The notes under the pieces are model-generated. The model was given only the letters and a program-made list of their open reading frames with translations, did not search any database and had not been told where the DNA came from. The position numbers and the translations under genes were made by a program. From positions 32,001 to 96,000 of IMG/VR virus record IMGVR_UViG_3300042882_000881: 64,000 bases of DNA. The stretch is one strand, 5' to 3'. This stretch comes from a virus. Shown one piece after another: positions 610-21,418 of the stretch. Each line of letters opens with the position of its first letter. Position 1 is the stretch's first letter.

Positions 610-1659
610 GTGGATAAGGACAAATTAATATTATCAAGAATTATTTCTGGGTCTTTAATCTTTAGATTTAAGGATCAATTACTATACTTGGTATATCCGT
701 CATTATCTATAAAATATGAATCAGAGATATATTATGAGGACTTATATGATAAATATAAATTCTCTGATTGGATAGTAGAATCTGACATATTAAATATACT
801 CAAGGAAAATAGATTGTGGTCGGATATGAATGAAAAGGAAATGTCTAATCTACAGAAGCAAATTGATCAAGTTAAAATAGAGTTATTTAAAAGCTTCTAT
901 GCTACTAAAAAACAAAAAAGCATAAGAGCCAAATTAAATAATCTTAAAGAAACTTATCAGAAATATTATAATGTTCGTCATAGTCTTGACCATCTTACCG
1001 TAGAAGGTTTTTGTGAAAAATACAAAAATGACTATCTACTAATTCATAGTATATTTAAAAAACAAGATGGTGAATTAATTAGATTCTTTGATAATTTAAA
1101 TCCAGATAGTAAATTATTAGAAGATGTTACATATGAAATAGGCCAACATTCTATAGATATTCCAGTGTTTAGAAGAATAGCAAGAGGAGATCTATGGAGA
1201 ACATATTGGTCAGCCAATAAAAATTTCTTGTTTGAAAAAGCATCATCAGAATGGACAGATGAACAACGAACACTAGTAGTTTTCAGCAAGATGTATGACT
1301 CTGCTCATGAAAGTACTGAGCCTCCACCAGATCCAGTATTCGATGATGATGATATGTTTGATGGTTGGATATTATTGCAGAATGAAAATGCTAATAAAGA
1401 AAAACAAAAGAAAACTGAAGATAAAGCTCTTGGATCAAAAATGTCAAAGGCTCAGGAAGTATTTTTCATGGCTAATTCATCAAATGATGCTTCAGATATA
1501 CATGATATGAATTCTAGTGTTACTAAAGCTATTATTAATGAAAGAAATACATCCATATTGAAACATAAAGATATTGATGCCACTAAATTACCAGATACTC
1601 AAAGAGAAATTGCTAGCATGAATCAAGAAGCATTTAAAAATAAACTAAGGAATAAATAA
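610..1659 (+). CDS. Hypothetical protein, possible tail assembly chaperone
   Basis: 349-aa charged helical ORF between tube and TMP; its LKENRLWSD..EK coiled segment resembles LVEQGLWDD..QK in the ORF at 1949. Confidence 0.45.
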   Translation: MDKDKLILSRIISGSLIFRFKDQLLYLVYPSLSIKYESEIYYEDLYDKYKFSDWIVESDILNILKENRLWSDMNEKEMSNLQKQIDQVKIELFKSFYATKKQKSIRAKLNNLKETYQKYYNVRHSLDHLTVEGFCEKYKNDYLLIHSIFKKQDGELIRFFDNLNPDSKLLEDVTYEIGQHSIDIPVFRRIARGDLWRTYWSANKNFLFEKASSEWTDEQRTLVVFSKMYDSAHESTEPPPDPVFDDDDMFDGWILLQNENANKEKQKKTEDKALGSKMSKAQEVFFMANSSNDASDIHDMNSSVTKAIINERNTSILKHKDIDATKLPDTQREIASMNQEAFKNKLRNK

Positions 1660-1952
1660 TGAATAATAAAAATATAGAATATATACTAAGAAAAAAAATT
1701 GAAACAACAATGATTGGAGCATTAGCTAGATTTGAAGAAGGATTCGGAGATCTCTGGGGATATAATACAGATAATCCAAGTCAAGAGCAAATAAGAAATA
1801 AAATGATATGGGAAAGAATACGCAATGAAATATTAGATCATGGTAATAATCAATTGCGTAAAGGAATGTCAGAATTACAAGGAAACAAAGATTTTGACAA
1901 AGTAAAGTATTCGTACTATTATAAGTTTAATAACAAGGAGAATAATCAATGA
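1659..1952 (+). CDS. Hypothetical protein
   Basis: 97-aa ORF with TAATG and ATGA overlaps to its neighbours. Confidence 0.6.
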   Translation: MNNKNIEYILRKKIETTMIGALARFEEGFGDLWGYNTDNPSQEQIRNKMIWERIRNEILDHGNNQLRKGMSELQGNKDFDKVKYSYYYKFNNKENNQ

Positions 1953-2800
1953 AGTCTTTAGATTTTACATACTCAGTCAATGGTGTTGATAAGAAATTTT
2001 CAGTAGTATTACCATCCTCTGATGATCAAAAAGAGGCCAATAGGGTATACAATACCGCGTTTAGTGATGCTATAAAAGCCAAGGCTTTGGTCAGAGCAAA
2101 ATTAGACGATGTTCTTGTTGAACAAGGATTATGGGATGATAAAAAGCAAAAAGATTTCAATGATCTGCAAAATTCTATTCTTGAGGGAGAGAGAAGATTA
2201 GCTAAGGGTGGTATACAACTAACAGAAGCTAAAAAGGTGGCTCTACAAATGAAAAAAGATAGAGCAGACTTAAGAGATTTAATTTCGGTCAAAACCAATC
2301 TAGATACTCATACCGCAGAAGGTCAAGCTGATAATGCTAGATTTAATTATTTAGTATCATCCTGTTTGGTGTATTCTGATACTAAAGAGACTTACTTTAA
2401 AGGATATCAGGACTATTTAAGTAGGGCTGCTGAACCTGTTTCTATATTGGCTGCTCAGCATTTGGCTTCTATGTTGTATGGCTTAGACAGCGACTATGAA
2501 GAAAAATTGCCAGAGAATAAGTTTTTGATGAAATATAAATTTGTTAATGATAAATTAAGATTAATTAATAAAGATAATCAACTAATTGATGAAGAAGGCA
2601 GGCTAGTAGATGAAACCGGAAGATTCATTAATGACAAAGGAGAATTCGTTGACAAAGAAGGAAACGTTGTTAATGAAAAAGGAGATTATCTCTTCGAATT
2701 TCAGCCATTCTTGGATGAAAGCGGAAAGCCTATTGTCGAATCTGCTCCAATTAAAGAGTCAGAACCAGAAGAACTATCCAAAGAAGAATCGCCAACTTGA
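1949..2800 (+). CDS. Putative tail assembly chaperone with C-terminal 7-aa beta-hairpin repeats
   Basis: Immediately upstream of TMP; AAGGAG RBS; repeats LINKDNQ/LIDEEGR/LVDETGR/FINDKGE/FVDKEGN/VVNEKGD. Confidence 0.5.
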   Translation: MKSLDFTYSVNGVDKKFSVVLPSSDDQKEANRVYNTAFSDAIKAKALVRAKLDDVLVEQGLWDDKKQKDFNDLQNSILEGERRLAKGGIQLTEAKKVALQMKKDRADLRDLISVKTNLDTHTAEGQADNARFNYLVSSCLVYSDTKETYFKGYQDYLSRAAEPVSILAAQHLASMLYGLDSDYEEKLPENKFLMKYKFVNDKLRLINKDNQLIDEEGRLVDETGRFINDKGEFVDKEGNVVNEKGDYLFEFQPFLDESGKPIVESAPIKESEPEELSKEESPT

Positions 2801-2828
2801 TATCAATATACTAACTTTTAATCAAAAG

Positions 2829-2865
2829 ATCCCATCTTCTACATTTAGAGGGTGGGATTTTTTTT
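2829..2865 (+). terminator. Rho-independent terminator upstream of the tape measure gene
   Basis: Stem ATCCCATCTTCT / AGAGGGTGGGAT (with G-U pairs), 6-nt loop, followed by a T8 tract. Confidence 0.8.
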
Positions 2866-2876
2866 GGAGATAATTA

Positions 2877-5800
2877 ATGGCCAAAACCTTTAATCTTACT
2901 GCACAAATAAACTTACAAGGTCCAGCTAATATAAAGCCTATTGTAGCACAAATTAGGCGAGAGCTAGGAACCATAAATACTGCTATTGATATTAAGTTTG
3001 ATACTAAAGCAGCCAAAGGTGTTGACAATTTATCTCAAAAAATACAAAGTTTAAATAGCATATTAATTGAAACTACTAAAAATAGTCAAATATTAGCTTC
3101 TTCATTAAATAATCTTGGAACATCTATTAAAGGATTAGGATCTATTGGTAAGGTTAATAGTTCAGTTAGTAAAACCGCACAAAGTATAACTTCCACAGCA
3201 AAAGCTGTTAAAACAGCAAGTTCAGAAATGGAAGAGTTTGGTAAACAGTCTGCTCTTGCTGTACGAAGATTTGCAGCATTTAGCGTTGTTAGTGCTGGAG
3301 TATTTTCATTAGTTAATGCTGTTAGAAATGGAACTAAGGCTTTTATTGAATTTGATAAACAGCTTATTAGATTACAACAAGTTACTGGTGGTGGTAGCGT
3401 TGGTATCAAATCATTGAGAGACGAAATTATAAACTTAGCAACCACTCTTGGTGTTAGTAGTGAGTCATTAACAGAAGTTGCTGTTACTCTTGCTCAGGCC
3501 GGTTTGAGTGCCAAGGAAACTCAACAAGCACTTGCTGCTTTAGCTAAGACAGAATTGGCTCCGTCATTCGATAATATGACAGAAACCACAGAAGGTGCTA
3601 TTGCTGCAATGAGACAGTTTTCTATAGAAACAAAAGATTTAGAAAAAGTTTTAGGCTCTATTAATGCTGTTGCAGCAGCATTCGCTGTAGAATCTAGCGA
3701 TATCATTACCGCTATTCAAAGGGCTGGTGGAGCATTTGCTGCTTCTAGCAAGGGTGTTAGTGAAGGGGCTGATGCATTAAATGAATTTATTGCTATCTTT
3801 ACTAGCGTTAGAGCAACAACTCGTGAAAGCGCAGAAACTATTGCTACTGGCTTAAGAACAATTTTTACTCGTATTCAAAGAGGAAGCACAATTGACTTCC
3901 TAAGAGAATTTAATGTTGAATTAACTGATAGCGAAGGAAAATTCGTTGGTCCATATGAAGGAGTTAAAAGATTAAGTGAAGTATTAAAAACTTTAGATCC
4001 TAGAGATTTAAGATTTTCTCAAATTGTTGAAGAGCTTGGTGGATTCCGACAAATTGGTAAGGTTATTCCTTTAATTCAACAATTCGGAGAAGCACAAAAA
4101 GCATTAGGTGTTGCTCAAAGAGGACAAGGAAGCTTAACAGATGCTCAAGTTAAAGCTCAACAATCATTAGCTAATCAAATTGCTAAGGTTAGAGAACAAT
4201 TTCTAGCATTATCATATGCTGTAGGTGAAAGTCAAACATTCAAAAGCTTATTTAAAATAGTTATTGGTTTAACTAGTGGACTAATTAAATTAGCTAGCGT
4301 TTTTAAACCATTATTACCACTGATAGCAACACTTGGTATTATTCAAGGTGGTAAAGCATTAACTAAATTCGGTAGCGGTTTTATTAGTGGTATTAAAAAA
4401 GGGGGAGGAGCAGGAGGAGTTGGTACAAATCTGGGAGAAAGTCTTAGTGGCGTTAATAGCGAAAAAACTGCCATAGCAGCAGAAAAAACAGCATCCGCAT
4501 TAACAGATAATACTAAATCAATAACAACATTAACAGCAGCTGTTGAGTCTTTAACTCAAGCTATTAACTCTAGAGGCCCAGCCACACTTAATAATGGTGG
4601 AAAAGTAATGGCTTTTGCTAGAGGTGGAAGTGTTCCTGGATCTGGTAATAGAGATACTGTTCCAGCAATGCTTATGCCAGGAGAATTCGTTATACGAAAG
4701 AAAGCTGTTGAAAAACTTGGTGCTGATAATTTACACAAGATGAATAAGTATGCTTATGGTGGCACAGTTAAAGATTTAAGCAAATATTATAAATCTATTC
4801 CCACCAAAAAGGGTTATGAAAATCTTGAGAATCAACCAATAAGAGACAATTCTATATTTAAAGAAGTTAAACCAACTGATTTAACAACAGATCAGATAGA
4901 AGAGTGGAGAGGCAGCGATATTCCAAGATGGAAAAAATTTGAATATGTATTATCTAAAAACTATAATCTAGGACCACCAGCAGCTGAACAGTTTGCTTTA
5001 TTAGATTTTCCACAATCTAGATCAGAAGCAAAATTTATGAAGAAGGGCGATACATATGATGATTATGATTCTATTAAAGGTAATAATGAAGCAACCATAG
5101 CGGCTAAAAATTTTCTTTATGAAAATAGTTTACTATCAGGAAAAGCAAATCTTAAGCCAGACCAACTGCTGACCAGAGCAATAGCCAACAAACCAGTTAC
5201 TACATACTGGGCAGATCCAACAAAATTTGCCGCACAAGGTTTGAATAAGGGTGGATTAATTCAAAAATTCCTACTTGGTGGAACAGTAGAAGAAACCTCT
5301 AAGTTAGAGAATATGACTGTTCAAGATTCTGTCATAGCATGGCTAAAAGAACTTGGAGGAATTCAAGGAGTAAAAGATATTAGTGGCGTTGCTGGTAATG
5401 ATAGATCATTAGATAGCATTTTAAGATTAAATAATATCAAATCTGGAGACAATACTAAATTAAGTAAAGCTATTGAAGCCGTAGACAGAGCATTAGCTAA
5501 TAAAACTGCTAAAAAAGCTAGAGAAGCACAATCTATTAATAAGGCACTTAAGCTTGGTATTGTTGGATTAGAACCATTAGGATTTAGTCAAGATAGAGTA
5601 TTTGATACTGGATTTGGTAAAGCTGCTTTATTACTCAGAGGATTACCTAATAGTCCTGAGTATACTGATTTAGTTGGTAAAACCAGAGCCGGCGTTGCTA
5701 AATTATCAACAGATCTTGCTACTGGATTTCAAACTGCTACTGCTTTTGGAGGAAGTCAACCAATAGCATTAGATTTTGATGAAACATTAGTTAAAGGAGC

Positions 5801-8800
5801 AGATATTTTTGGTCCAGATGGAAAACCAGATATTCCAGCATATGACGATCTTAACAGAGTTAAAGAGGCTCTTCAGAATGGACAACCAACAGAACTAGCA
5901 CAAAAATTAAAATCTATTATGGATTTTGATCCATCATTTATAGATAGAATAAGAGTATTAACAGCCAGACCACAAGAGAATGCTAATCTTTTAGCTGAAA
6001 AACTAAACTCTATCGGATTACCAATTCCAGCATCTAAAATACAAGGAACACGAGGTGGTGGATCAACAAAGGCTTCTAAACTTGGTGTTGCAGAAAAATT
6101 AATAGATGATAATTATGATAATATTTTAGCTGCAATTGCTCAAGGTAAAACAGCTAAACAATATGCTGAATTAAGAGAAATACAAGATGCTGAACAAAGA
6201 GCTGGAGGTATTGCTAATGCAGAAGGAGCAGTACTACAATTAGCCTTGTCTCAACTGGGCGCTCAAGGAGGAACTATAAAAGAAGCTGCTATAGACTTTG
6301 AAAGAGGTCTAGGTTTACAAGCCTCACAAATATTTGGTCTTCCTCCAGATATTCCAACAGAAGTTAAAAGAACTCTTAGTAGCGCTGCTATTGGGCGAGC
6401 AGAAGATGAATTTACTAGATATTTTAAAGAAAACTACGGCCCATTTCCTAAAGGATCTGATGTTTATGGTTTTAATAAAAGTACTGGCTTACCAATAAGT
6501 AAATTTGCTGACGGTGGAGAAGTTTATAGTGCAAAACAATTGGTATCATTAGCCAAGTATAGAACAGGTAACGGCCCTGGAGGTGGAACTAATAGTGAAT
6601 TTATAAATAGATATTTAGAAGATAATGACTCTTTCATGGAATATCTTAAAACTTTCCATGCTGATCCACCCAAAGCGTATGACGCTACAAAGAATGCCGC
6701 AAAAGATTTATTGGAAATGTTTAGTAGCCAAGAATCAATGAGTGGATCAAAACGTTCTGGTAAACTATATTCTACAGTTGCTGGAGGGAAACTAAAGACT
6801 CTTTTAACTCAAATTGGTAATCCATTAAATTCTAATAAAGATATTTCTGATGCTATTGGAAAAACTTTTAATTTAAATGGCTCATTATTATCAACCAGTG
6901 AATCACCAGACACTGCTAGTATGTTCCAGCCAGAAAATGGCTCTAGTGCAATGTTAAGTATTATAAGAAATAAAAATATCCCATCTATTGATGTTGATAA
7001 AACAGTATTTGATACTGCTACAGAAGACGATGTTATAAAAGCTCTATCAAAATACATGGATCCTGTTTCTGGCAAAAGTGGAGCAGATTATCTAAGTAGA
7101 AGTCGCTCAGGCACAAGGTTAGAGAGAGAATTCATTCTACCACCATCTTCAAAATTTAGAATAGATGATATTGATAGAATATATACTAAGGACCAAGAAG
7201 ATAAATTATTAGGTGGAAATATTCGTCATATAGAAGGAATGAAAGTTCAGCAGTTTAAAGATGGAGGAATGGCATTTGGTAAAGAAAATGAATTTGAAAA
7301 AATCAGACAAAAAATATTAAATCAATATCCAGATATTAATTTTAGAATTTCCAGACGAAAGAATGGTTTTGGATACAATATACTAGGCGGACTAAAACAA
7401 GAAGGTAGTAATATTGGTAATTATGCAGAATTTAAGCAAGCTGGTAATCTTTCTAAATTACAAGAAGTTGCTGATAATATGGCGTCCTCTCTGCTATATG
7501 AATATGGTCCAAATATAGATCCGTCTCTTCTCAAAAAGATGCAAAATAAAAGAAAATTTGCAAACGGAGGGTCTGCACAGGATACCGTACCAGCATTATT
7601 GACCCCTGGTGAATTTGTTATCAATAAAAAAGCTGCACAAAAAATTGGATATAGTAAATTACATCAGATGAATAAAGCTGATAAAATACAAGGATATAAT
7701 AAGGGTGGTTCTGTAGGATTAGTTCAAAAATTTGCTGATGGTGGAGACGTTAGGGAAACTCAAGATTGGGCAGATGCATTGCGAGCAATTGGAAATAGTG
7801 CTCTACCAGACTTAGATGATGCTATAGAAGATGTTGCTAAACAATTTGAAGCTCTTGGTAAATTAGATGTGTCTAAAGCTCTTAGGGAAGCTATAGATCC
7901 AAGTCTTAACAGAGATCAACAATCGCGAGCCATAGGAGGAAGTGCAAGAAATACTGCTATATATGAAAATAATTCAGTAAAAGACTCGGCAGGAAATATA
8001 ACAAATGTTAATCCTGGACTAGATGCTCTTGCTGCTAGTATAGAACGTAATATTGAAGCTCAAAAGATTTTTACAATTGAAGCAGAAAGAGCCGGTATAA
8101 GTTTGAAGGATTTTGAGTCCAAAGTTAAATCTCAAAATTTAGAAAAAGCACTATCTGGCATAAATCAAAGACAAGACTCTAGAGGTTTATTAAGAAGAGA
8201 TTTTATCAAATCTAAGCTAACTGGCCTAGACACTCCTGATAAACTATCTGATGCCAGAGACACATTAATTTCTAGCTTATCTGAACTGTTAAAACCAGAT
8301 GAAGTTGAAAAAGCTATTGATGCTATAATTAGTGGAGCAGAAGCTGGTCAAAGTTTAGAAGATGTTGCTAAAACTTCTGACGAAGTTAAGAAAGCTCTTG
8401 ATGCTTCTATAGATAGAACAGAAGCTCTTAGCAAAGCAGAACAAGATTTAATTGATAATTTTGGAGAATTAACTAATAGTGTTAGAATAACAGCAGAAGA
8501 ATTAGCGGCTTTTGAATATAAAAAATCAGGTAGAGCACAAGAAGAATTTGGGATGTTGGGTGGCTTTAATCCTAGTGGAGCATTAGCGTTTAAAAATAGT
8601 AAAACCGGAGGAGGACTATTATCAGCCGCTCAAAACTTCCAACAAACCGCTGGATTAGGCAAATTGCCATTTATAGGGAAAAATATTGGAGTATTTACTA
8701 AAGCTTTAGAAGGTCTTCCTGGTCCAATTGGTAATGCTATTAAATCTATAGGAGGATTACCAGGGGCATTGGCTGCTGTTACATCTATTATTGGTAGTGA

Positions 8801-11800
8801 AGTTATACCACAACTATTAAAAGCTACTAATATGGGAACTAGTGAAATTGGTGCTGGAGTAGGAGGAGCATTAGCTGAAGGAGGTAGCAGAGCAGTTAGC
8901 TTAGGAACAATAGGAAATCAATTAGCAGGACCAATAGGTGGACTAATAGGGTTAGTAACAGGAGCATTATCTGGTGCCATAGATGGTTTTGTTAAAGCAT
9001 TTCAAACTAAAAAATTAGAAAATAGTATAGCTCAATTAGATAAAAGTATAGAACTAGTAGATAAATCATTTGAAAATTTAGCTAAAAAAGATAATTTACA
9101 AAATATTACAGCTGCACAAAAGTCTTTAGGTGGAATTTCCAGTAGTTTTTCTGATTTGAAAACTCAATCAGAAATTAGTCCAATGGAAAGAGCTGCTTCT
9201 GGTGCTTCTACAAGTGCTCTAGTGGCTGGAGGCGCCGCTATTACAGCATTAGTTGCAGTATTAGCTGGTATTCCTACTTTTGGATTCGGAACAGCAGCAG
9301 TATTAGGAACAGCAGCAGTTGTTGGTGGTGTTGCTGGTGGAGTTTATGGCTCAACAATGAGAGCTCCATCTGAATTAGATGATGAAGCACTTCAATCATC
9401 ATTAAGAGCTGCTGAAAAATATATTGAAGGATTGAATAGACTAGCAGAAAGAGATATTAAATTAAAGAGTCTTTCCCAGTTAGAAGAAGTGACTAGTGAG
9501 ATAGATCAAATTAATAAAGATCTTGCTGGTGGTAAAATTGGATCAGCTGATGCTGAAGCATTAAAAAAGAATAAATTTATTGAACTTGGTGCAAAAAGTG
9601 CTCAAATTGAAAATGCTCAAAGAAGCGCTCTTGTTAATAGTGGAATAAATATCAGAGCAGATCAGCCATTAGCTCAACAAATAAATGGTAATGATCAGGC
9701 TATGAAAATTGCGGCGGCAGCAGCAGAACAAGCAGCATACATTGCTGGTATGGATAAGCTTAAAAGGCAATATGGTGATAATAACGCTATGCTTAGGAAA
9801 GAAAGTGCAGACAGGCAAAAGGTCATTGCTCTTGGAAATGAAGAATTAGGTATGCAATCTTATCAAATGGCATCAACAGAAAGATTGATTAGATTAACAA
9901 AAGATATGGCAAAAGAAACAGAAGCTTTAGTAGAAGCTTATAATAGAGCATTAGCTGGTATAGGTCGCTTTAAGAATGAATTAGAAAACTTTGTATTAAA
10001 AACAGAACAAAATGCTTCATTCTTTACTGGTGAAGGTGGAATGGGTCAAACTGATAGAACTCAAGAGCAAATGCTCAGAAATATGACAGCTTATACTGCT
10101 CAAGAATTAGCTCCAGTATTAGATAATGTAACATCGTTGGCAGGAGGTGGTGAACAAGGTAAAAAATTAACTGATAGTATTAAAGCTAGTAAAATTATGC
10201 AAGATATTTTACCAGGAATATTAAGAAATGCTGACGCTAGAAATGTTGGTGATGTAACAGCAAAAGTAGATCAAGCATTAGCTGGACAAGGCATAGGAAA
10301 GACTGTAAGAACAACTCTTGTGGATGAACTTAGAGAATACCTAAAAAAAGAAACTGGCAACAGAAGCGGAGATAGCTTTCAGGAAGTATTAGCCAATTTC
10401 CCTGCACTAGCAGACGCAATAAATACTGCTAAAAAAGCACAAGAAGTTGGAATAGCCATATTAGAAGCTCAAAATGATGCTCTTGATCAGGTTAATAAAC
10501 AACTAGATCAATATAACAAATATTTAAAACAATCATTACAATGGAGCATCAAGGCTGATCAGATACGTTTACAAGGAGCTATTGATCTTGATAGGGCTCT
10601 TGGTCGCACAGTATCACTAGATAGATTAAATGCTCCTATTGAGAACGAAATTAAAGCTTTAAGCGGCATTAATTCATCAGATCCTGTTGCTATAGCCAAT
10701 CAAATCAGAGCAGATCAAGCCAGAGCAGAAGCTATAAATGGTACTAATGGTCAGAGAGGACTAATGGATCAAGCTAAAGCAAGAGGCGAAGCTGGAAAAG
10801 ATGAAGTTGCTAAATTAGCTAAAGAACAAGCTGATCTTGCTAGAGCTTCAAGTAATGCTTACGAAGCTCTTGAAAAACTTGCTACTAGTGGAGATATTGC
10901 ATCTAATGTGTTGAGTAAAATTGAAGAAGAAAGACAATTAGGTAAAAACTTTATAGATTTTGCTAGGAAAGTATCAACACAAACTGCTGAAGAAGCTATT
11001 CGTATGAATAGATCTTTTGCGGCATTCGAACAAACAATTGCTGGTAATATGAATTTTGGTAATAGAGAAAATAGACAATTAGCTTATGAAGGAATGGATA
11101 CTCTACTTCCATTACTAAGAGGATCAACAGAAGGCAATCAAATCATAGCAAGATTTACTAAAAATATGCTTGCTAACCAAGGTGTCGATCTTAATAAGAA
11201 ATTTGGTAATACTGGAAGTACTATTGGAGAATTAATAGATGCTGGTACAACTGGTATTGATCCTGGCACACAAAAATTAATTGATCTATATACCAAAGCT
11301 AAAGATGCCCAAGAACAAGCAGCAAGAGAATTAGCTAATCTTAATGGATCAGCAGCAAATAAGTATCTTGAAAGTACAGCAACAATACTAAATAATCTTT
11401 ATAATAGTTTACCAGCAATCATAGCTAGCGCTCTATTAGATCCTCAAAAAGCGGCTAATGGTCAAGTTCAAGCTCCAGCACTACAAAATAATGCTCAATT
11501 ACCAAATGTTCCTCCTGATCCTAACAAGCCAATTCCAGTTGTTGTGCAAAATGCTCAACAAGCAGGAGGATTAGCTAATGGAGCACCAGTAGTTGGTCAA
11601 AATATTGCTGGGCCAGCCAATGCTCAAGCTTTTAATGCTATGGCCACAACAGTTCCAAAATTAGATCTAACAATGTTAAATACTATTAGAAGTATCGATA
11701 CATTAAATGTTGGAATAGTGAATCTTGGCACAACAGTTAAAGATTTAGCAGATAAATTAGCTGATTCTTCAGCAATGGTTGATGCTATGACAATTTTTGA

Positions 11801-12092
11801 TAAGTCTACCATAGTCTTTGGGTCAAAGGTTGATATTTTTGATAAAGCCACGCTATCTTTTGGATCTTATGTTGACAAATTATCTACTACCGCAGGATTA
11901 CTGAGCGATGCTAAGATTACTATGGGTGGTAATTATACTGTGGATGTTAAGGTTAGTGGAGCAGCAGCATTCCAAGCTATTGAAGAAGGCACACAAAAAC
12001 TAATAGATAAAGAAATTGGATTGGCTATGAGAAAATTAGTGAATAAGATTAAAAAAGTAACCGGCATGGATCTAGACTTAGATAGGAGATGA
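2877..12092 (+). CDS. Tail tape measure protein with an internal multi-domain cargo cassette
   Basis: 3071 aa, Ala/Gln/Lys-rich helical; N-terminal TP901-type TMP core (AIQRAGGA..RESAETIATGLRTIFTRI); Gly/Ala-rich hydrophobic segments around 8760-9350; cargo region 4590-7745. Confidence 0.92.
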   Translation: MAKTFNLTAQINLQGPANIKPIVAQIRRELGTINTAIDIKFDTKAAKGVDNLSQKIQSLNSILIETTKNSQILASSLNNLGTSIKGLGSIGKVNSSVSKTAQSITSTAKAVKTASSEMEEFGKQSALAVRRFAAFSVVSAGVFSLVNAVRNGTKAFIEFDKQLIRLQQVTGGGSVGIKSLRDEIINLATTLGVSSESLTEVAVTLAQAGLSAKETQQALAALAKTELAPSFDNMTETTEGAIAAMRQFSIETKDLEKVLGSINAVAAAFAVESSDIITAIQRAGGAFAASSKGVSEGADALNEFIAIFTSVRATTRESAETIATGLRTIFTRIQRGSTIDFLREFNVELTDSEGKFVGPYEGVKRLSEVLKTLDPRDLRFSQIVEELGGFRQIGKVIPLIQQFGEAQKALGVAQRGQGSLTDAQVKAQQSLANQIAKVREQFLALSYAVGESQTFKSLFKIVIGLTSGLIKLASVFKPLLPLIATLGIIQGGKALTKFGSGFISGIKKGGGAGGVGTNLGESLSGVNSEKTAIAAEKTASALTDNTKSITTLTAAVESLTQAINSRGPATLNNGGKVMAFARGGSVPGSGNRDTVPAMLMPGEFVIRKKAVEKLGADNLHKMNKYAYGGTVKDLSKYYKSIPTKKGYENLENQPIRDNSIFKEVKPTDLTTDQIEEWRGSDIPRWKKFEYVLSKNYNLGPPAAEQFALLDFPQSRSEAKFMKKGDTYDDYDSIKGNNEATIAAKNFLYENSLLSGKANLKPDQLLTRAIANKPVTTYWADPTKFAAQGLNKGGLIQKFLLGGTVEETSKLENMTVQDSVIAWLKELGGIQGVKDISGVAGNDRSLDSILRLNNIKSGDNTKLSKAIEAVDRALANKTAKKAREAQSINKALKLGIVGLEPLGFSQDRVFDTGFGKAALLLRGLPNSPEYTDLVGKTRAGVAKLSTDLATGFQTATAFGGSQPIALDFDETLVKGADIFGPDGKPDIPAYDDLNRVKEALQNGQPTELAQKLKSIMDFDPSFIDRIRVLTARPQENANLLAEKLNSIGLPIPASKIQGTRGGGSTKASKLGVAEKLIDDNYDNILAAIAQGKTAKQYAELREIQDAEQRAGGIANAEGAVLQLALSQLGAQGGTIKEAAIDFERGLGLQASQIFGLPPDIPTEVKRTLSSAAIGRAEDEFTRYFKENYGPFPKGSDVYGFNKSTGLPISKFADGGEVYSAKQLVSLAKYRTGNGPGGGTNSEFINRYLEDNDSFMEYLKTFHADPPKAYDATKNAAKDLLEMFSSQESMSGSKRSGKLYSTVAGGKLKTLLTQIGNPLNSNKDISDAIGKTFNLNGSLLSTSESPDTASMFQPENGSSAMLSIIRNKNIPSIDVDKTVFDTATEDDVIKALSKYMDPVSGKSGADYLSRSRSGTRLEREFILPPSSKFRIDDIDRIYTKDQEDKLLGGNIRHIEGMKVQQFKDGGMAFGKENEFEKIRQKILNQYPDINFRISRRKNGFGYNILGGLKQEGSNIGNYAEFKQAGNLSKLQEVADNMASSLLYEYGPNIDPSLLKKMQNKRKFANGGSAQDTVPALLTPGEFVINKKAAQKIGYSKLHQMNKADKIQGYNKGGSVGLVQKFADGGDVRETQDWADALRAIGNSALPDLDDAIEDVAKQFEALGKLDVSKALREAIDPSLNRDQQSRAIGGSARNTAIYENNSVKDSAGNITNVNPGLDALAASIERNIEAQKIFTIEAERAGISLKDFESKVKSQNLEKALSGINQRQDSRGLLRRDFIKSKLTGLDTPDKLSDARDTLISSLSELLKPDEVEKAIDAIISGAEAGQSLEDVAKTSDEVKKALDASIDRTEALSKAEQDLIDNFGELTNSVRITAEELAAFEYKKSGRAQEEFGMLGGFNPSGALAFKNSKTGGGLLSAAQNFQQTAGLGKLPFIGKNIGVFTKALEGLPGPIGNAIKSIGGLPGALAAVTSIIGSEVIPQLLKATNMGTSEIGAGVGGALAEGGSRAVSLGTIGNQLAGPIGGLIGLVTGALSGAIDGFVKAFQTKKLENSIAQLDKSIELVDKSFENLAKKDNLQNITAAQKSLGGISSSFSDLKTQSEISPMERAASGASTSALVAGGAAITALVAVLAGIPTFGFGTAAVLGTAAVVGGVAGGVYGSTMRAPSELDDEALQSSLRAAEKYIEGLNRLAERDIKLKSLSQLEEVTSEIDQINKDLAGGKIGSADAEALKKNKFIELGAKSAQIENAQRSALVNSGINIRADQPLAQQINGNDQAMKIAAAAAEQAAYIAGMDKLKRQYGDNNAMLRKESADRQKVIALGNEELGMQSYQMASTERLIRLTKDMAKETEALVEAYNRALAGIGRFKNELENFVLKTEQNASFFTGEGGMGQTDRTQEQMLRNMTAYTAQELAPVLDNVTSLAGGGEQGKKLTDSIKASKIMQDILPGILRNADARNVGDVTAKVDQALAGQGIGKTVRTTLVDELREYLKKETGNRSGDSFQEVLANFPALADAINTAKKAQEVGIAILEAQNDALDQVNKQLDQYNKYLKQSLQWSIKADQIRLQGAIDLDRALGRTVSLDRLNAPIENEIKALSGINSSDPVAIANQIRADQARAEAINGTNGQRGLMDQAKARGEAGKDEVAKLAKEQADLARASSNAYEALEKLATSGDIASNVLSKIEEERQLGKNFIDFARKVSTQTAEEAIRMNRSFAAFEQTIAGNMNFGNRENRQLAYEGMDTLLPLLRGSTEGNQIIARFTKNMLANQGVDLNKKFGNTGSTIGELIDAGTTGIDPGTQKLIDLYTKAKDAQEQAARELANLNGSAANKYLESTATILNNLYNSLPAIIASALLDPQKAANGQVQAPALQNNAQLPNVPPDPNKPIPVVVQNAQQAGGLANGAPVVGQNIAGPANAQAFNAMATTVPKLDLTMLNTIRSIDTLNVGIVNLGTTVKDLADKLADSSAMVDAMTIFDKSTIVFGSKVDIFDKATLSFGSYVDKLSTTAGLLSDAKITMGGNYTVDVKVSGAAAFQAIEEGTQKLIDKEIGLAMRKLVNKIKKVTGMDLDLDRR
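4587..7745 (+). repeat. Ten protein-level [FYL]xxGG motifs and a duplicated DTVPAxLxPGEFV module within the TMP
   Basis: LNNGG 4587, AFARGG 4611, KYAYGG 4746, GLNKGG 5238, KFLLGG 5265, KFADGG 6501, QFKDGG 7251, KFANGG 7554, GYNKGG 7692, KFADGG 7728; DTVP modules at 4653 and 7581. Confidence 0.9.
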
Positions 12093-15619: not shown

Positions 15620-18600
15620 ATGGCATATATACAATATCCTGGCGCAAAATGTGGACAGTTAGATTTAACAAAAATACCAATTGATGACTATTTGGTCATG
15701 GGTAATTCTGCTTGGGTAAGAGCATCCGTTGAGGAAAAGGTTTATTCTGCTGGTACTGACAGAGGCAAGGTAATATTTAAATTCAATGATCCGTGCGTTG
15801 TAACATTATGTCCAAATGATTTTATTGCTGGACAGAATATTGATGCTGCTAGCGAAGCGATAGTATTTGGTCTTAATGTTGCCAACATACCAAGTAATTC
15901 AGCTACTGAATATCAATCAAACTCAAAAACAGAATATTTTCAGGTAGACGCTAGTGATATTACAGTCTCATCTAAAAGAAGAGTAGATTCTGCAAATGCT
16001 AATCAATATAGTATGTTTCCTGCTGCTATTATGCCTTGTGCAGTTGCTGTTCCATTACGATCTAATATCAGACCATATGGTCCATATGCTACTAGTAATT
16101 TTCACAATAGTTGTGGCGGCATAAATGTTGAAGTAGATAAAGATATTGCTCCGTGGGTATTTGGCTCAGTAGACCTTATGAATACTGCTGCCATGATAAG
16201 ACTATCATCTATGGAAACTGATCCATTAGTAATTGGTACAACTGGTAGCGTAACTGTGCCATGTTTACCACAGGTTAGTCTTGGATATTCCATGTTGAGT
16301 GAGGGGCCAGTTTTAAATGGTCTTAGTGTTAATTTTGGTGCAGGAGGAGCATCAACAACATATTCATATCAAACTTTTACTCCAAAGTTCGGATCATTTT
16401 CTGCTAGTACATTAGATAGAATTAAATTAATAGCAAAAAATAGAAGAGAGCAATTAAAATTAATTAGGAATCAACAAATTCTTAATAATAGAATAGCCCG
16501 ACAAAGATCAAAGGTTGATTATAGATCAAATCCAATATTTACAAAACATGACGGTATTGCCAAACAAGCCTCTCTTCACAGAGTCTTTATTGGCGAAATG
16601 ATGGATTGGTGGAAAGACGTTAATTGTTCTGACGGAGTTGGTACTTGTAGCGGTTGTAGCAGTATTGCATTATATGGTCCTTATCAACCGGTATTAAGTA
16701 TTGCTTATGGAAATAGATTAAAATCTAGTCCTAATTTTCGTTCTGGGCCAATGGTTGAAGCAAGACATAATTCTCAGAGAACTGTTGTTGGTTCAGAAAC
16801 ATTAAGTAAACAAACATTAGAATTAAGATGGGACTATGAAAATAAAGCATTCATGAGTATGGATGGCTTACTTGGCCCAATATCAGTCAGTGGAGACGGC
16901 AATCTTCCTCAATATGCAAGATATAATCCAAAATGCCATAGACAAGCCCCATTATCACCACAGCCACCATTCGGTAAATGTTCAACTGTAACAAAAATTG
17001 AATGTAATGATGGATTTAGTAACCAAGGCTCACCAGTAGAGTCGTTGTACTATAATCAAAAAATAGAACAGAAGTTTGAAAATCCTGTTCAAAATCCAAC
17101 AAGTTGCCACCACCATTTGGGCACAGTTCATGGACATATTATTGATATTTTAGGAAGAAAGAAAAGTATCTCTGATCATATGATCATGAATCTGCATAGC
17201 AATCAAGATTATGCTGAAGATTATAGATTCCTAGGATTAAGAGGACCATTAGTATTACACAGTTGGGGATATGATACTTGGGGCAAACCAATACCAAACG
17301 AAGCAGATGTTGAAGCTGATGCTATGGATGGTATATTTAAAGAAGAAAATCTAAAAGATAGATTCTTCTGTGAATGGTTATCAAAGCCAGCAACATGGCC
17401 AGTTGGTCCTATTGATTTAAGATTTGATAGAGACAGAGGAGTTTGGGTTGCTCCACCACAAGACTATAAGGTTATTGTTGTTGAATTAATTCAAAACTTG
17501 GAACCATTTGGTACAGCATTAGCTCAATTAATTAATAAAGATAATGAAGCAAATAAAGATTATGGTCCTAAGCTATGGGACTTTGAAGGTAATGAAATAC
17601 ATGCTACTTCAGACTCATCATCTGATTATGTAGTTACTGTAGAAGATAGAATTAAAGCATCTTATAAGTGTGGCACAAGATTATATGCTCATTATGATAC
17701 ATACTCTTGTAAGTATATAGTATTTGGTCAAGTTCCACCTACTGAAACAACAGATATCATCAGATTCAGATTATACGATAATGCTTGTGCTCCAACAGGT
17801 AGTGGAGTTTGTGATTGGAAAGAATATGCTGGATACAGAGATAAGTTTTTAAATAATCATACTTTTGGAGTTCGTATTAATTGCGATGGTGCTCCAATAG
17901 ATATTGATAAAAAAGTAATTGGACAAGCTGATATAGAAAATACACAAAAGAAACAGCAAGTTCTTGTTAACCTATATGATACTGCTGGTCAACATGGTCC
18001 AGCATATGCACTATATACAACATACGAAGAATGGAAAGAAAAAGCTCATACTGGTTTTGCAGCAAGAATATTTGGATCTAGTCAACCCAATATAGCTCCT
18101 AGCGGACAACAATCTTCTCACGTTTGCGGAGATTGTATTCCTGAAAGTGGATCATCAGTATCTGAATGTGAAGAACTTTGTATAACATTTACTGAAAACG
18201 AAACTCCAGAGCAGGGCAGAGACGAGGTATCTTCATGTGCTTGCACAATGGGATCCACAGAGTGTGGATGTCCAGACCCCAATTTGCCAAACTATGATAT
18301 ACTATTCTTAGAAGGATATGCTAGATTTATACATGCTACACTATTAGAAGATTTATATCCATCTGCTTGTGGAAATAAAACTACTTCTTTTAGTTCAAGC
18401 TGCCCATGTGGAACTGCTGCTGCAAATATAGATGGTGAATTATTCTACGGCAATAGTCCAAATGGTCGTAAGCCAACATTCTATACATCATCAGGACAAA
18501 CCGAATTTAGAATTTTTGATCCATTTCAAGATAGAGAATTCCATAGTCCATTTAAGGATTTAAAAGCAGGACATAGAGTTTTAGCAATTTTTAATGAAAA

Positions 18601-20659
18601 AGAGAAAAAATATTATATATATCAATCACAAACTTTAGATAAATTTATTAAGTTTGCATTAATAGAAGATAAAAAAACTGTTAATCAAATTTGTACAAAA
18701 GCAATTAGAGTTGATAAATTTAATAGACCCATTAATTCTGATGGTAAATTAATACTATCTGATAGTGAATTAGAAGCTCATAAAATTGTAGTTGTAGACC
18801 CAATAGCTGAAAAAGCCTCTTTATATCAACAGTCTCTAAATTTCTCTACTTTAGGTCCAGCTCTAGGATCGTCAAAATATATAGATCATTATAATGGAGA
18901 AACTTTATATAGCTATAATAGAGGAAGTTATAGTGGTAGCATTATTAAACCATTCACTGGCTATGCAAAATATAGAGATACTCCATGCTCAGATGATTGT
19001 GATAATTGTAGTGGACTATCTCCAAATTTACCATCTTATGATATAGTAACATTAGAAAATTTTGCTAATTTTATTGAGTTTGAAGCAGCAGAAGACATAA
19101 TAGCCTGTAATGGTAAAGGTCCATTATGTTCATATTCACCACCACATTATGCTGCTAATTTTTATCATTATTATGATGGTACAGTTCCTGTTGGTCGTAA
19201 GCATACAGAAGGATCTTATCATCATGATAGATTAGTTAATATTAATATATATGATGTTATACCAGACACTGAAGAATATAAAAAGCGTCCAAGTTATATT
19301 GTTGGTGAAATAGTAGGAAATCTCGGACAAGGCTGCAAAGGTATAGCAAAATTAGATTCGAGAAAATCTACCACTGACGAATTAATATATAATATTGTTG
19401 ATGCTCAAACACAAGCATTATTTGGTAAATTTAAAGTGCTTGATTGCACAGGGGCTGGACAATTAAATAATGAATGTGAAGCTTTTAATGACGTTCAATG
19501 TGATCCTAAGCACGTTAGACTATATTGGTTTGGCGGAGGTTTTGAATGGAGTGAAGACGATCCATTAACATGTGCTAGAAGAGGCAATGTTAAAATTATT
19601 AATAAGCATGAGTGGTGCGGCAAGTGGTATCATGAACCATCAAACCATAATGGATCAGTTATTAATACTGATTTAGATGAATATTATATTGATGATGCTT
19701 ATCCAATAGCAAATGTCAAATTTGGCACATACGATGGATGTGGTGTTCCATCAGGATGTGAAGATGCTTGTGATTATCTGGATGGTATTCATCCAACCTG
19801 TTGTCACCCAACTAGTGAAAATTGCATAGGTCCATTCTTATCTTATTCTGGTGCTCAATATGTGGCACAATGGAATGAAGATTCTGCACAATACAATATA
19901 ATAAATGCAGAAGAATCTCCAATTTTAATAGAAGGAACATTATTAAATAATATTGGATGTTGTGTCGGGAATGCTGATGTTGAAGTATATGCAGCAACCA
20001 ATAATGAGGATGGCTTAGAAGCAGAACCAATTAAAACGCTTGTACATAGTTGTGAAAATCCAAGAGGTTGGTGTGGTAATGCTGGAGATCAAATAGTAAT
20101 ACATAGAAGACAAGTTAATAACTGTTATACATATAAAGTATTGAGTATTGGTAAAGTATGTACTCCTGGAGCATCTGTTGAGAGCGGTAATTGTTTATTA
20201 GGACCAACAGAAACTCCTCATGAAATAGCCGGTTGTGATTATAGATATTTTAATGCTAGAATTGAATGTTTCCCAGGATTTGACGAGAGCATAACACAAC
20301 AACTTATGCATGGAAAAGGCTTTGGTTTGATGTGGGAAAAGATTCAATCTTACCAAACAAGAGTAATTCATGGTTGCTGGAATGGATCATCAATTAGCGT
20401 ACAAGGATTTTCTGGCTATGATGGTAAAGATAGTAATGGTAATTCTATTATTGGTCAATCTATAGGAGTAACTAATCCAAATTCTTGCTGTAATTCTGAA
20501 TGTGGAGAAGGTTCTGTATTTAGTGTTCCAGAAGGAGGAACAGCATGGGCCACAGCAACATATATGAATACTGCAAGCGGATGCTTTTGGACATTAACTA
20601 ATGCTGAATGCTGTAATTCTTGCGCCTTCTCAGGATGTGATGAATGTGAAGAATGTTAA
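15620..20659 (+). CDS. Large Cys-rich putative baseplate/tail tip protein with internal duplicated modules
   Basis: 1679 aa, AGGAG RBS, position in the tail module, repeated beta modules. Confidence 0.5.
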   Translation: MAYIQYPGAKCGQLDLTKIPIDDYLVMGNSAWVRASVEEKVYSAGTDRGKVIFKFNDPCVVTLCPNDFIAGQNIDAASEAIVFGLNVANIPSNSATEYQSNSKTEYFQVDASDITVSSKRRVDSANANQYSMFPAAIMPCAVAVPLRSNIRPYGPYATSNFHNSCGGINVEVDKDIAPWVFGSVDLMNTAAMIRLSSMETDPLVIGTTGSVTVPCLPQVSLGYSMLSEGPVLNGLSVNFGAGGASTTYSYQTFTPKFGSFSASTLDRIKLIAKNRREQLKLIRNQQILNNRIARQRSKVDYRSNPIFTKHDGIAKQASLHRVFIGEMMDWWKDVNCSDGVGTCSGCSSIALYGPYQPVLSIAYGNRLKSSPNFRSGPMVEARHNSQRTVVGSETLSKQTLELRWDYENKAFMSMDGLLGPISVSGDGNLPQYARYNPKCHRQAPLSPQPPFGKCSTVTKIECNDGFSNQGSPVESLYYNQKIEQKFENPVQNPTSCHHHLGTVHGHIIDILGRKKSISDHMIMNLHSNQDYAEDYRFLGLRGPLVLHSWGYDTWGKPIPNEADVEADAMDGIFKEENLKDRFFCEWLSKPATWPVGPIDLRFDRDRGVWVAPPQDYKVIVVELIQNLEPFGTALAQLINKDNEANKDYGPKLWDFEGNEIHATSDSSSDYVVTVEDRIKASYKCGTRLYAHYDTYSCKYIVFGQVPPTETTDIIRFRLYDNACAPTGSGVCDWKEYAGYRDKFLNNHTFGVRINCDGAPIDIDKKVIGQADIENTQKKQQVLVNLYDTAGQHGPAYALYTTYEEWKEKAHTGFAARIFGSSQPNIAPSGQQSSHVCGDCIPESGSSVSECEELCITFTENETPEQGRDEVSSCACTMGSTECGCPDPNLPNYDILFLEGYARFIHATLLEDLYPSACGNKTTSFSSSCPCGTAAANIDGELFYGNSPNGRKPTFYTSSGQTEFRIFDPFQDREFHSPFKDLKAGHRVLAIFNEKEKKYYIYQSQTLDKFIKFALIEDKKTVNQICTKAIRVDKFNRPINSDGKLILSDSELEAHKIVVVDPIAEKASLYQQSLNFSTLGPALGSSKYIDHYNGETLYSYNRGSYSGSIIKPFTGYAKYRDTPCSDDCDNCSGLSPNLPSYDIVTLENFANFIEFEAAEDIIACNGKGPLCSYSPPHYAANFYHYYDGTVPVGRKHTEGSYHHDRLVNINIYDVIPDTEEYKKRPSYIVGEIVGNLGQGCKGIAKLDSRKSTTDELIYNIVDAQTQALFGKFKVLDCTGAGQLNNECEAFNDVQCDPKHVRLYWFGGGFEWSEDDPLTCARRGNVKIINKHEWCGKWYHEPSNHNGSVINTDLDEYYIDDAYPIANVKFGTYDGCGVPSGCEDACDYLDGIHPTCCHPTSENCIGPFLSYSGAQYVAQWNEDSAQYNIINAEESPILIEGTLLNNIGCCVGNADVEVYAATNNEDGLEAEPIKTLVHSCENPRGWCGNAGDQIVIHRRQVNNCYTYKVLSIGKVCTPGASVESGNCLLGPTETPHEIAGCDYRYFNARIECFPGFDESITQQLMHGKGFGLMWEKIQSYQTRVIHGCWNGSSISVQGFSGYDGKDSNGNSIIGQSIGVTNPNSCCNSECGEGSVFSVPEGGTAWATATYMNTASGCFWTLTNAECCNSCAFSGCDECEEC

Positions 20660-20671
20660 TAGGACTATAAT

Positions 20672-21418
20672 ATGCCATCTCAATTAGGAAACTGTAACTG
20701 CTGTAAATGTGACGATTGTAGATGCAAGGTGATACTATATAAATGTGGAGGATCATGGGCCCCAGCTCCCACTGTTAAATGCGGCAGAAACAGCGTTAGT
20801 GGTCGATTTGTGTTTGAGAATTCTGCCGATTGCGGAGGCTGCAAGTGTTGTGTACAAGAAGGCTGCACAGTAAGTAAAATTTGTTTAGATAAAACATATG
20901 TTTTTAAATTTAGAGTATATGGTCATCTAGAAACATCTAGAGCCGGTATGCATATTGGAGAAATATATTATAGAAAAATATGCTGTAATGGAAAAAAGAA
21001 ATCATGGAAAAGAGTAGTACATGTAGAATCTGAAGGAGGAGGACTTCCATGTTGTAAGAGTAGACCAGTTGATGTTTGTAAAATAAAATTAGCTAGAGGA
21101 AAATATGAATTTAAATTTAAAGCTAATTCTGTAGATGGTTTGGATCATTGTGGCAATTTTTTACAATATGATGTTAAGTGGTGCAAAAATGTGATAGGTA
21201 AAAGTTGCTGTCCTACCTTACCAGGTATGGAAGAAGTATCAGATTTTTGTTGTTCTGTCACAAACAATCCATGTTGTCCTCCTCCTACATGTATACCATT
21301 AGGTAAATGCAATCAGGAGGATCCATCTTGCGATGAATGTCCTCCTGGCTGCGGCACAGATCCATGCGTAGCACACGGATGGATTATAATTCCATGTGAC
21401 AGTGTTAATCTTGCTTAG
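20672..21418 (+). CDS. Very Cys-rich hypothetical protein (34 Cys in 248 aa), probable virion component
   Basis: AGGA RBS; last gene of the + strand tail operon; central beta-sandwich-like stretch. Confidence 0.55.
   Translation: MPSQLGNCNCCKCDDCRCKVILYKCGGSWAPAPTVKCGRNSVSGRFVFENSADCGGCKCCVQEGCTVSKICLDKTYVFKFRVYGHLETSRAGMHIGEIYYRKICCNGKKKSWKRVVHVESEGGGLPCCKSRPVDVCKIKLARGKYEFKFKANSVDGLDHCGNFLQYDVKWCKNVIGKSCCPTLPGMEEVSDFCCSVTNNPCCPPPTCIPLGKCNQEDPSCDECPPGCGTDPCVAHGWIIIPCDSVNLA

Follow-up and report, generated by a model that had tools for sequence, protein, structure and literature searches.

We report a tape measure protein (TMP) gene on a phage contig, IMG/VR record IMGVR_UViG_3300042882_000881, of which one 64,000-nucleotide stretch was analyzed (the window; bases 32001–96000 of the 113,950-bp contig; 33% G+C). 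We propose that this TMP has a hypervariable cargo slot after its N-terminal domain and that effector cargo in the slot is delivered at the site of DNA entry, a reading to which we assign a probability of roughly 0.6. The slot occupies amino acids (aa) 575–1625 and is enclosed by two copies of a conserved module, M, and its units are separated by five-residue boxes ending in Gly-Gly (GG boxes; [FYL]xxGG, typically F-x-x-G-G). Swapping of units at these boxes suggests a common, undescribed route for the delivery of enzymes into bacteria at infection.

The gene is an open reading frame (ORF) at 2877–12092 of the window, on the plus strand, and its translation in the ORF listing is 3071 aa long. 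Residues 181–386 match PF10145 (PhageMin_Tail; E = 3.4e-21, 76.5 bits against a gathering cut-off of 33.2) and the ORF also matches several PHROG tape-measure families (best E = 1.5e-32); on the basis of these profile matches we assign the product as a TMP. Its great length, its hydrophobic segments and its setting in a tail gene module are further TMP characters, and the part of the contig that lies 5' of the window encodes TerL (large terminase), a candidate major capsid protein with a weak match, and tail fibers. The cassette lies between hydrophobic stretches at aa 457–490 on one side and aa 2017–2158 on the other. Hydrophobic stretches of the glycine-zipper-like kind are typical of membrane-inserting TMP segments. 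The features of the gene are listed below by window coordinates, all on the plus strand (pLDDT, predicted local distance difference test; HAD, a phosphatase superfamily).

2877–12092, +, TMP gene, 3071 aa, without cysteine
3417–4034, +, conserved N-terminal TMP domain PF10145 (aa 181–386), collinear and 45–76% identical in relatives
4245–4346, +, hydrophobic transmembrane-like stretch (aa 457–490) directly 5' of M1, Kyte-Doolittle windows >1.5
4599–4763, +, M1 module (aa 575–629), within which boxes begin at aa 580 and 625, with the box at aa 571 just 5' of it
4764–5237, +, cargo unit A (aa 630–787), conserved FE...LDFP...[ED]AKF motif
5238–5282, +, double GG-box linker (NKGG..QKFLLGG; aa 788–802), low pLDDT, where homology breakpoints cluster
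5283–5747, +, cargo unit B, part B1 (aa 803–957), helices and a three-stranded sheet, pLDDT 77–95
5748–6173, +, cargo unit B, part B2 (aa 958–1099), predicted HAD-superfamily phosphatase, four motifs
6174–6500, +, cargo unit B, part B3 (aa 1100–1208), conserved E..IDFP..PTEVKRT motif
6504–6518, +, FADGG box at the B/C junction, joined directly to M2 in the relative P0003; C starts here in P0006
6519–7250, +, cargo unit C (aa 1215–1458), predicted ADP-ribosyltransferase (ART)-fold domain with LYS, GK-x-F..STS and E-x-E motifs
7254–7268, +, FKDGG box at the C/D junction; D is absent from here to M2 in P0006, P0009 and P0031
7269–7553, +, cargo unit D (aa 1465–1559), small alpha/beta domain
7542–7751, +, M2 module and two trailing GG boxes (aa 1556–1625), located by profile hidden Markov model (HMM)
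8925–9350, +, hydrophobic, glycine-zipper-like stretches (aa 2017–2158) 3' of the cassette, from Kyte-Doolittle windows

Conserved modules and exchangeable units

A first-pass annotation of this DNA had described a cassette with ten GG boxes flanked by two 32-aa repeats, and its coordinates were confirmed. The boxes start at aa 571, 580, 625, 789, 798, 1210, 1460, 1561, 1607 and 1619, and this count of 10 compares with a mean of 1.7 after shuffling of the sequence (10 or more in 0 of 2000 shuffles). The repeats were correctly placed but are longer than had been described: the segments at aa 593–624 and 1569–1600, identical at 22 of 32 positions, are the cores of a module of ~55 aa (M), with the consensus GG-x-I/V-x-x-F-A-x-G-G-x-V-P-G-x-G-N-x-D-T-V-P-A-M-L-x-P-G-E-F-V-I ... 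M-N-x-Y-A-x-G-G. A profile HMM of M matches the TMP at aa 575–629 (E = 1.8e-31) and aa 1559–1603 (E = 5e-25). Because M1 and M2 are only ~70% identical in DNA, with many synonymous differences, it is the peptide and not the DNA that is conserved in M, and the same divergence rules out a recent duplication or DNA-level homogenization of the two copies. Across TMPs, we found 630 M hits in 205 proteins, with 2–9 copies per protein and an M1–M2 interval of ~150 to ~1800 aa. A complex prediction for three M copies, made for the idea of a trimer clamp, gave a score of 0.02, which speaks neither for nor against binding.

Relatives of the cassette were collected by a word-indexed search with aa 560–1640, which returned 1039 proteins of 1.7–5.4 thousand residues (E <= 0.001); giant metagenomic TMPs that share parts of the cassette sit on contigs of 60–240 kb. 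Among the best 120 of the 1039, nearly all carry PF10145, and coverage of the cassette ranges from 5% to 99%; unit A is present in about one-third, B in most, C in about 10 and D in about 15. The ends of BLAST alignments to these 120 relatives cluster at aa 620–639, 780–800, 1180–1230, 1450–1469, 1530–1569 and 1610–1629, which are the positions of the boxes.

Individual relatives place these junctions exactly. P0003 aligns collinearly up to aa 1214 of the query, with 76% identity, after which the end of B is joined to M2 through a single box (...S-R-F-A-N-G-G-S-S-Q-D-T-V-P-A...) and both C and D are absent. P0002 lacks C only; in P0006, P0009 and P0031 it is D that is missing, between the box that follows C and M2. 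Unit C of P0006 is 87% identical to the query over exactly aa 1206–1466, compared with 57% for the same protein's N-terminal domain and 32% for its B3, a pattern that we read as the signature of a recent exchange of one unit. The order of units also varies, with C ahead of B in some TMPs. Judged from these alignments, units are gained, lost, reordered and exchanged between phages exactly at boxes.

We then compared box positions with predicted structure, using two AlphaFold2 runs. The GG boxes fall in linkers with pLDDT <50 and the predicted domain limits (B, aa 805–1184; C, ~1239–1459; D, ~1469–1562) coincide with the boxes, in agreement with the first-pass annotation. In the pool of relatives, boxes were present at between 59/69 and 20/20 of the domain ends tested, compared with ~17% in random windows. 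Whether the cargo varies among relatives had been set beforehand as a refutation test for the cassette, and the exact junctions together with these frequencies mean that the test was passed.

The M module extends to cultured phages: in a tblastn search of 50,697 cultured phage records, M alone was matched. In the TMP of Gordonia phage Yeezy (gp18, 2109 aa), M is present in three or four copies that carry the same F/Y-A-x-G-G boxes, and a Pfam SLT transglycosylase domain (aa 1511–1601) sits between two of them. SSM2_012 of Synechococcus phage S-SM2 (766 aa, annotated as 'transmembrane protein') contains one M module at aa 333–381 and occupies the gp29 (tape measure/hub) position of this T4-like cyanophage (cyanomyovirus). 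Since cultured phages have M in their ordinary TMPs too, on both sides of a lytic transglycosylase, the M flanks are not specific cassette ends; rather, the M-bounded slot is a general TMP feature that also underlies the classical cell-wall hydrolase domains of TMPs. The Yeezy TMP offers a tractable model for the roles of M and the boxes.

A different view of the boxes is that they are protease sites, and that the TMP is a polyprotein that is cut at or after injection to free its enzymes. Boxes lie in disordered linkers at every unit boundary, which is compatible with this view, and their retention as peptide despite diverged DNA implies a constraint on the peptide itself. The Tal tail proteins of Tuc2009 and TP901-1 are known to self-cleave at Gly-rich sites. 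For polyvalent injected proteins, Iyer et al. propose processing by MPTase peptidases (PMC5512222), but their paper is silent on tape measure proteins, which are never mentioned ('tape' occurs 0 times). In addition, no protease family was found in the cassette (Pfam, NCBIfam) or in 11 upstream structural ORFs (Pfam or PHROG). The TMP contains 0 cysteines in 3071 aa, cargo included (genome median, 1.6%), and only 4 histidines, none of which is conserved, and a built-in cysteine, HExxH or Ser-His-Asp protease is therefore unlikely. Boxes also occur within M of ordinary TMPs such as that of Yeezy (three or four), for which we know of no multi-site processing, and the phage maturation proteases known to us cut after Glu or Lys, not after Gly-Gly. 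We consider cleavage an unlikely function of the boxes, for which the best reading is that of conserved joints between domains that also act as in-frame sites of recombination.

Folds and motifs of the cargo units

To characterize the cargo, we combined alignments of cropped references from IMG/VR loci with the AlphaFold2 models. The first-pass annotation had proposed four globular segments of non-helical sequence with nuclease-, phosphatase- and ADP-ribosyltransferase-like motifs. Three of the segments (B, C and D) are predicted to fold separately, whereas A is not confidently folded and B is a composite of B1, the HAD domain and B3; 'non-helical' proved to be loose wording, as B includes long helices. 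In sequence searches of Pfam, NCBIfam and PDB, none of A, B, C, D and M had a match above threshold.

The phosphatase assignment was upheld. In the model of aa 625–1216, unit B is confident over aa 805–1184 (pLDDT 77–98), and the LLGG and FADGG boxes that border it fall where pLDDT is <= ~50. B2 has a Rossmann-like HAD fold and all four HAD motifs (D966-F-D968-E-T970, T1029, K1065 and D1077-D1078); an alignment of 41 sequences shows no variation in the Asp, Thr970, Lys and Asp-Asp columns, and T1029 reaches at least 90% conservation. The best fold match is polynucleotide 3'-phosphatase, followed by AphA (class B acid phosphatase), and class C acid phosphatases rank high; matches with Z scores differing by <1 were counted as tied. 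By fold and motifs, B2 is thus a predicted HAD phosphatase. Its identity to the 3'-phosphatase domain of T4 polynucleotide kinase-phosphatase (5uj0, 1ltq) and to AphA is 15–17%. Unlike the T4 enzyme, it has no kinase domain, and its neighbors B1 and B3 have no known counterpart. Part of B1 is found without the HAD domain in other TMPs.

Unit C was only partly as first described: the ART fold and the STS and E-x-E motifs are present, but the canonical Arg is absent. The model has an ART fold, among whose BFVD matches are ModB, ModA, Alt and fusions of ARTs to head-morphogenesis (MuF) domains, and a search of the Atlas gives ART support as well. The central S-T of S-T-S and both Glu residues of E-x-E do not vary in an alignment of 8 sequences and are conserved throughout a larger one of 13. 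In the latter, the third S-T-S position is S in 12/13 and T in 1/13. An invariant Lys precedes the STS motif. At the aromatic-Arg position of the first strand, 13/13 sequences read L-Y-S (T in one). Given Ser/Thr in place of Arg, we file unit C as ART-like, a predicted ART-fold domain with an altered NAD+ site, and not as a canonical R-S-E member. Its PF03496 score lies below the gathering threshold (13 against 23.4 bits; E = 0.067), and some relatives carry a precomputed PF03496 match. A phmmer search with unit C against 1.8 billion representatives yielded 4 hits, the only distant ones being two giant proteins, P0124 (7122 aa) and P0123 (2113 aa).

The nuclease identity proposed for A and B3 found no fold or profile support. 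Both contain the E...D...(D/E)xK motif order of PD-(D/E)xK nucleases: in A, the E, D and [ED]-A-K are invariant (6 sequences), and in B3 the D is invariant and E, K, R and T are each at least 90% conserved (21 sequences). However, profile searches of the PDB with either alignment were empty, and A had no match in Pfam, NCBIfam, PDB or the Atlas. A was modeled with pLDDT 30–68, and B3 contributed no more than one or two strands to its model, in which the HAD domain filled the lists of structural matches. A PD-(D/E)xK reading of either unit, taken from the conserved E...D...[ED]xK motifs, is therefore unproven. An origin of A and B3 as paralogues was also considered and is unsupported (hhalign probability, 10.7%). 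HMM matches to A were found in 20/503 pooled sequences, and B3 occurs alone, without the HAD domain, in other TMPs.

These folds bear on where the cargo would act. AphA is periplasmic and class C acid phosphatases are envelope-associated, and their high ranks among the HAD matches would suit cargo whose site of action is the envelope, as for the peptidoglycan hydrolase domains of TMPs, and not the cytoplasm. The equivalent M-flanked slot in Yeezy, with its SLT transglycosylase, points the same way, and the absence of Cys would suit passage through an oxidizing compartment. We nevertheless rate an envelope role as very unlikely: the ART-fold domain needs NAD+, which is cytoplasmic, the top HAD match, although tied, is the polynucleotide 3'-phosphatase, and no cell-wall-degrading fold was found in the cassette by Pfam or structure searches.

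Another reading is that the cassette works for the DNA or tail of the phage itself, whether as a pilot or end-protecting module, in which the HAD and nuclease-like parts would bind or trim the leading end of the genome, or as length-setting structural filler with vestigial motifs. Within a TMP, the N-proximal part is the closest to the head and to the DNA end, phosphatases of the T4 Pnkp type work on the ends of nucleic acids, and B and C are found only inside TMPs. Vestigial motifs are hard to reconcile with HAD and ART catalytic motifs that are invariant across sequences 22–45% identical, and close relatives that lack C, D or A indicate that these units are dispensable for tail assembly. We accordingly give a role in the phage's own DNA or tail little credence and favor effector cargo.

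Proposed delivery and known systems

For effector cargo, we envisage the following route. Being part of the TMP, the cargo would be carried in the tail tube, exit the tail ahead of the DNA and reach the inner membrane or its cytoplasmic face at the entry site, where it would act before any phage gene is expressed. There, the substrates would be host NAD+ for the ART-like domain and a phosphomonoester of a nucleic acid or nucleotide for the phosphatase. The enzymes may remain tethered at the entry portal as they work; cleavage that releases them would be possible but is unsupported. The lack of Cys, which includes the cargo and is shared by the TMPs of Yeezy and S-SM2, is in keeping with cargo long resident in a protein that passes in extended form through the tube and an oxidizing compartment. 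During injection, the lambda TMP is labeled from the cytoplasmic side at ManYZ, and a membrane nuclease defense acts there (PMC13190303). Delivery would be analogous to that of T4 Alt and of 'polyvalent' injected proteins.

Several points weigh against this proposal. Cytoplasmic delivery is inferred, and three copies of ~1050 aa of folded cargo would be hard to fit into a lumen of ~4 nm, so that unfolding may be needed. The catalysis of unit C is uncertain given the Ser/Thr in place of the canonical Arg in 13/13 sequences, and the mean pLDDT of its model is only 58. When free-standing homologues were sought by word-based search, one fragment was returned for C (range 134–427 aa) and none for B (range 223–711 aa); at the sensitivity used, B and C thus lack free-standing homologues, which is unusual for effector domains. 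Finally, 20 other M1–M2 cassettes contained no Pfam family above threshold, and most cargo may therefore not be enzymatic.

Parts of the arrangement have precedents. In TMPs with peptidoglycan-hydrolase motifs (mycobacteriophage TM4, other actinobacteriophages and T5 pb2), an enzyme domain is embedded in the TMP as it is here. Those domains attack the cell wall, whereas intracellular substrates are expected for a HAD phosphatase and an ART fold, and here several units are chained over ~1050 aa and shuffled between phages. T4 Alt, ModA and ModB and the MuF-ART fusions share the ART fold with unit C and are likewise enzymes delivered at infection, but they travel in the head, their sequence similarity to unit C is undetectable, and they have the full R-S-E triad where the TMP-borne unit has Ser/Thr at the Arg position.

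Polyvalent proteins are very large, chain many unrelated effector domains including ARTs, and have been proposed to enter with the DNA and act immediately (PMC5512222). The present protein resembles them in combining many unrelated effector-type domains in one giant chain, with delivery argued from TMP biology. It differs in its carrier, which is a TMP where phage versions of polyvalent proteins are tied to head or packaging contexts, and in lacking the MPTase peptidase that is pervasive in polyvalent proteins (none was found in the TMP by Pfam, PHROG or NCBIfam). A further precedent is provided by the contractile injection system (CIS) effectors Sle1 and Tme, which combine a TMP-like coiled coil with a variable globular domain ejected from a tail-like tube (PMC13277306, PMC11126660); the variable domains of such TMP-related effectors are thought to adapt to the tube lumen and to fold after ejection (PMC13277306). 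Sle1 and Tme are cargo of bacterial CIS, each with one domain at the C terminus, as opposed to a phage TMP with an internal multi-unit slot.

Embedded TMP hydrolases, polyvalent injected proteins and virion-borne ARTs are therefore already known. In the literature, we found no description of a TMP slot that chains HAD, ART-like and further domains; what is new is the content of the slot and its chaining, with units shuffled at a five-residue box in >1000 uncultured phages. More speculatively, the M-bounded slot might be a general programmable delivery platform of tailed phages, into which box-ended units are recombined, carried unfolded and released by self-cleavage or by some protease still to be found, so that membrane-proximal defenses are disarmed. 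We think this extension improbable as a whole; if true, it would mean that free enzymes (ART-like, phosphatase and hundreds of unknown families) arrive in a burst where the DNA enters.

Genomic setting and biological meaning

The tail module of this phage is essentially unannotatable by sequence: none of the 8 ORFs flanking the TMP (window 2–21418) matches any PHROG family at E <= 0.001. Directly 5' of the TMP (window 1659–2873) are overlapping ORFs of 97, 283 and 87 aa, the last at 2610–2873 in another frame, and their placement resembles a tail assembly chaperone pair with a programmed frameshift; the 97-aa and 283-aa ORFs, the two scanned, had no match in PHROG. Cys-rich tail or baseplate ORFs adjoin the Cys-free TMP at window 15620–21418, and others lie outside the window at genome 1186–4610; their Cys content reaches 4.1% in a 1679-aa ORF and 13.7% in a 248-aa ORF, compared with the genome median of 1.6%. 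Also 5' of the window, at genome 19413–22737, are two adjacent tail-fiber-like ORFs of ~540 aa each, both of which start with Mtd_N, the major tropism determinant's N-terminal domain (E = 1e-11 and 3e-13).

Proteins injected with the DNA precede phage gene expression and so are prime candidates for early takeover or counter-defense, yet few are known. Our results indicate that a TMP can carry chained enzymes of a predicted intracellular type, in an arrangement that is common (>1000 giant metagenomic TMPs) and that amounts to a large store of candidate effector domains, nearly all of them unannotated. The five-residue box provides a sequence rule for locating the limits of such cargo and possibly a design principle for loading foreign proteins into phage tails. 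More broadly, the long-known cell-wall hydrolase motifs of TMPs can now be linked to the concept of the polyvalent protein.

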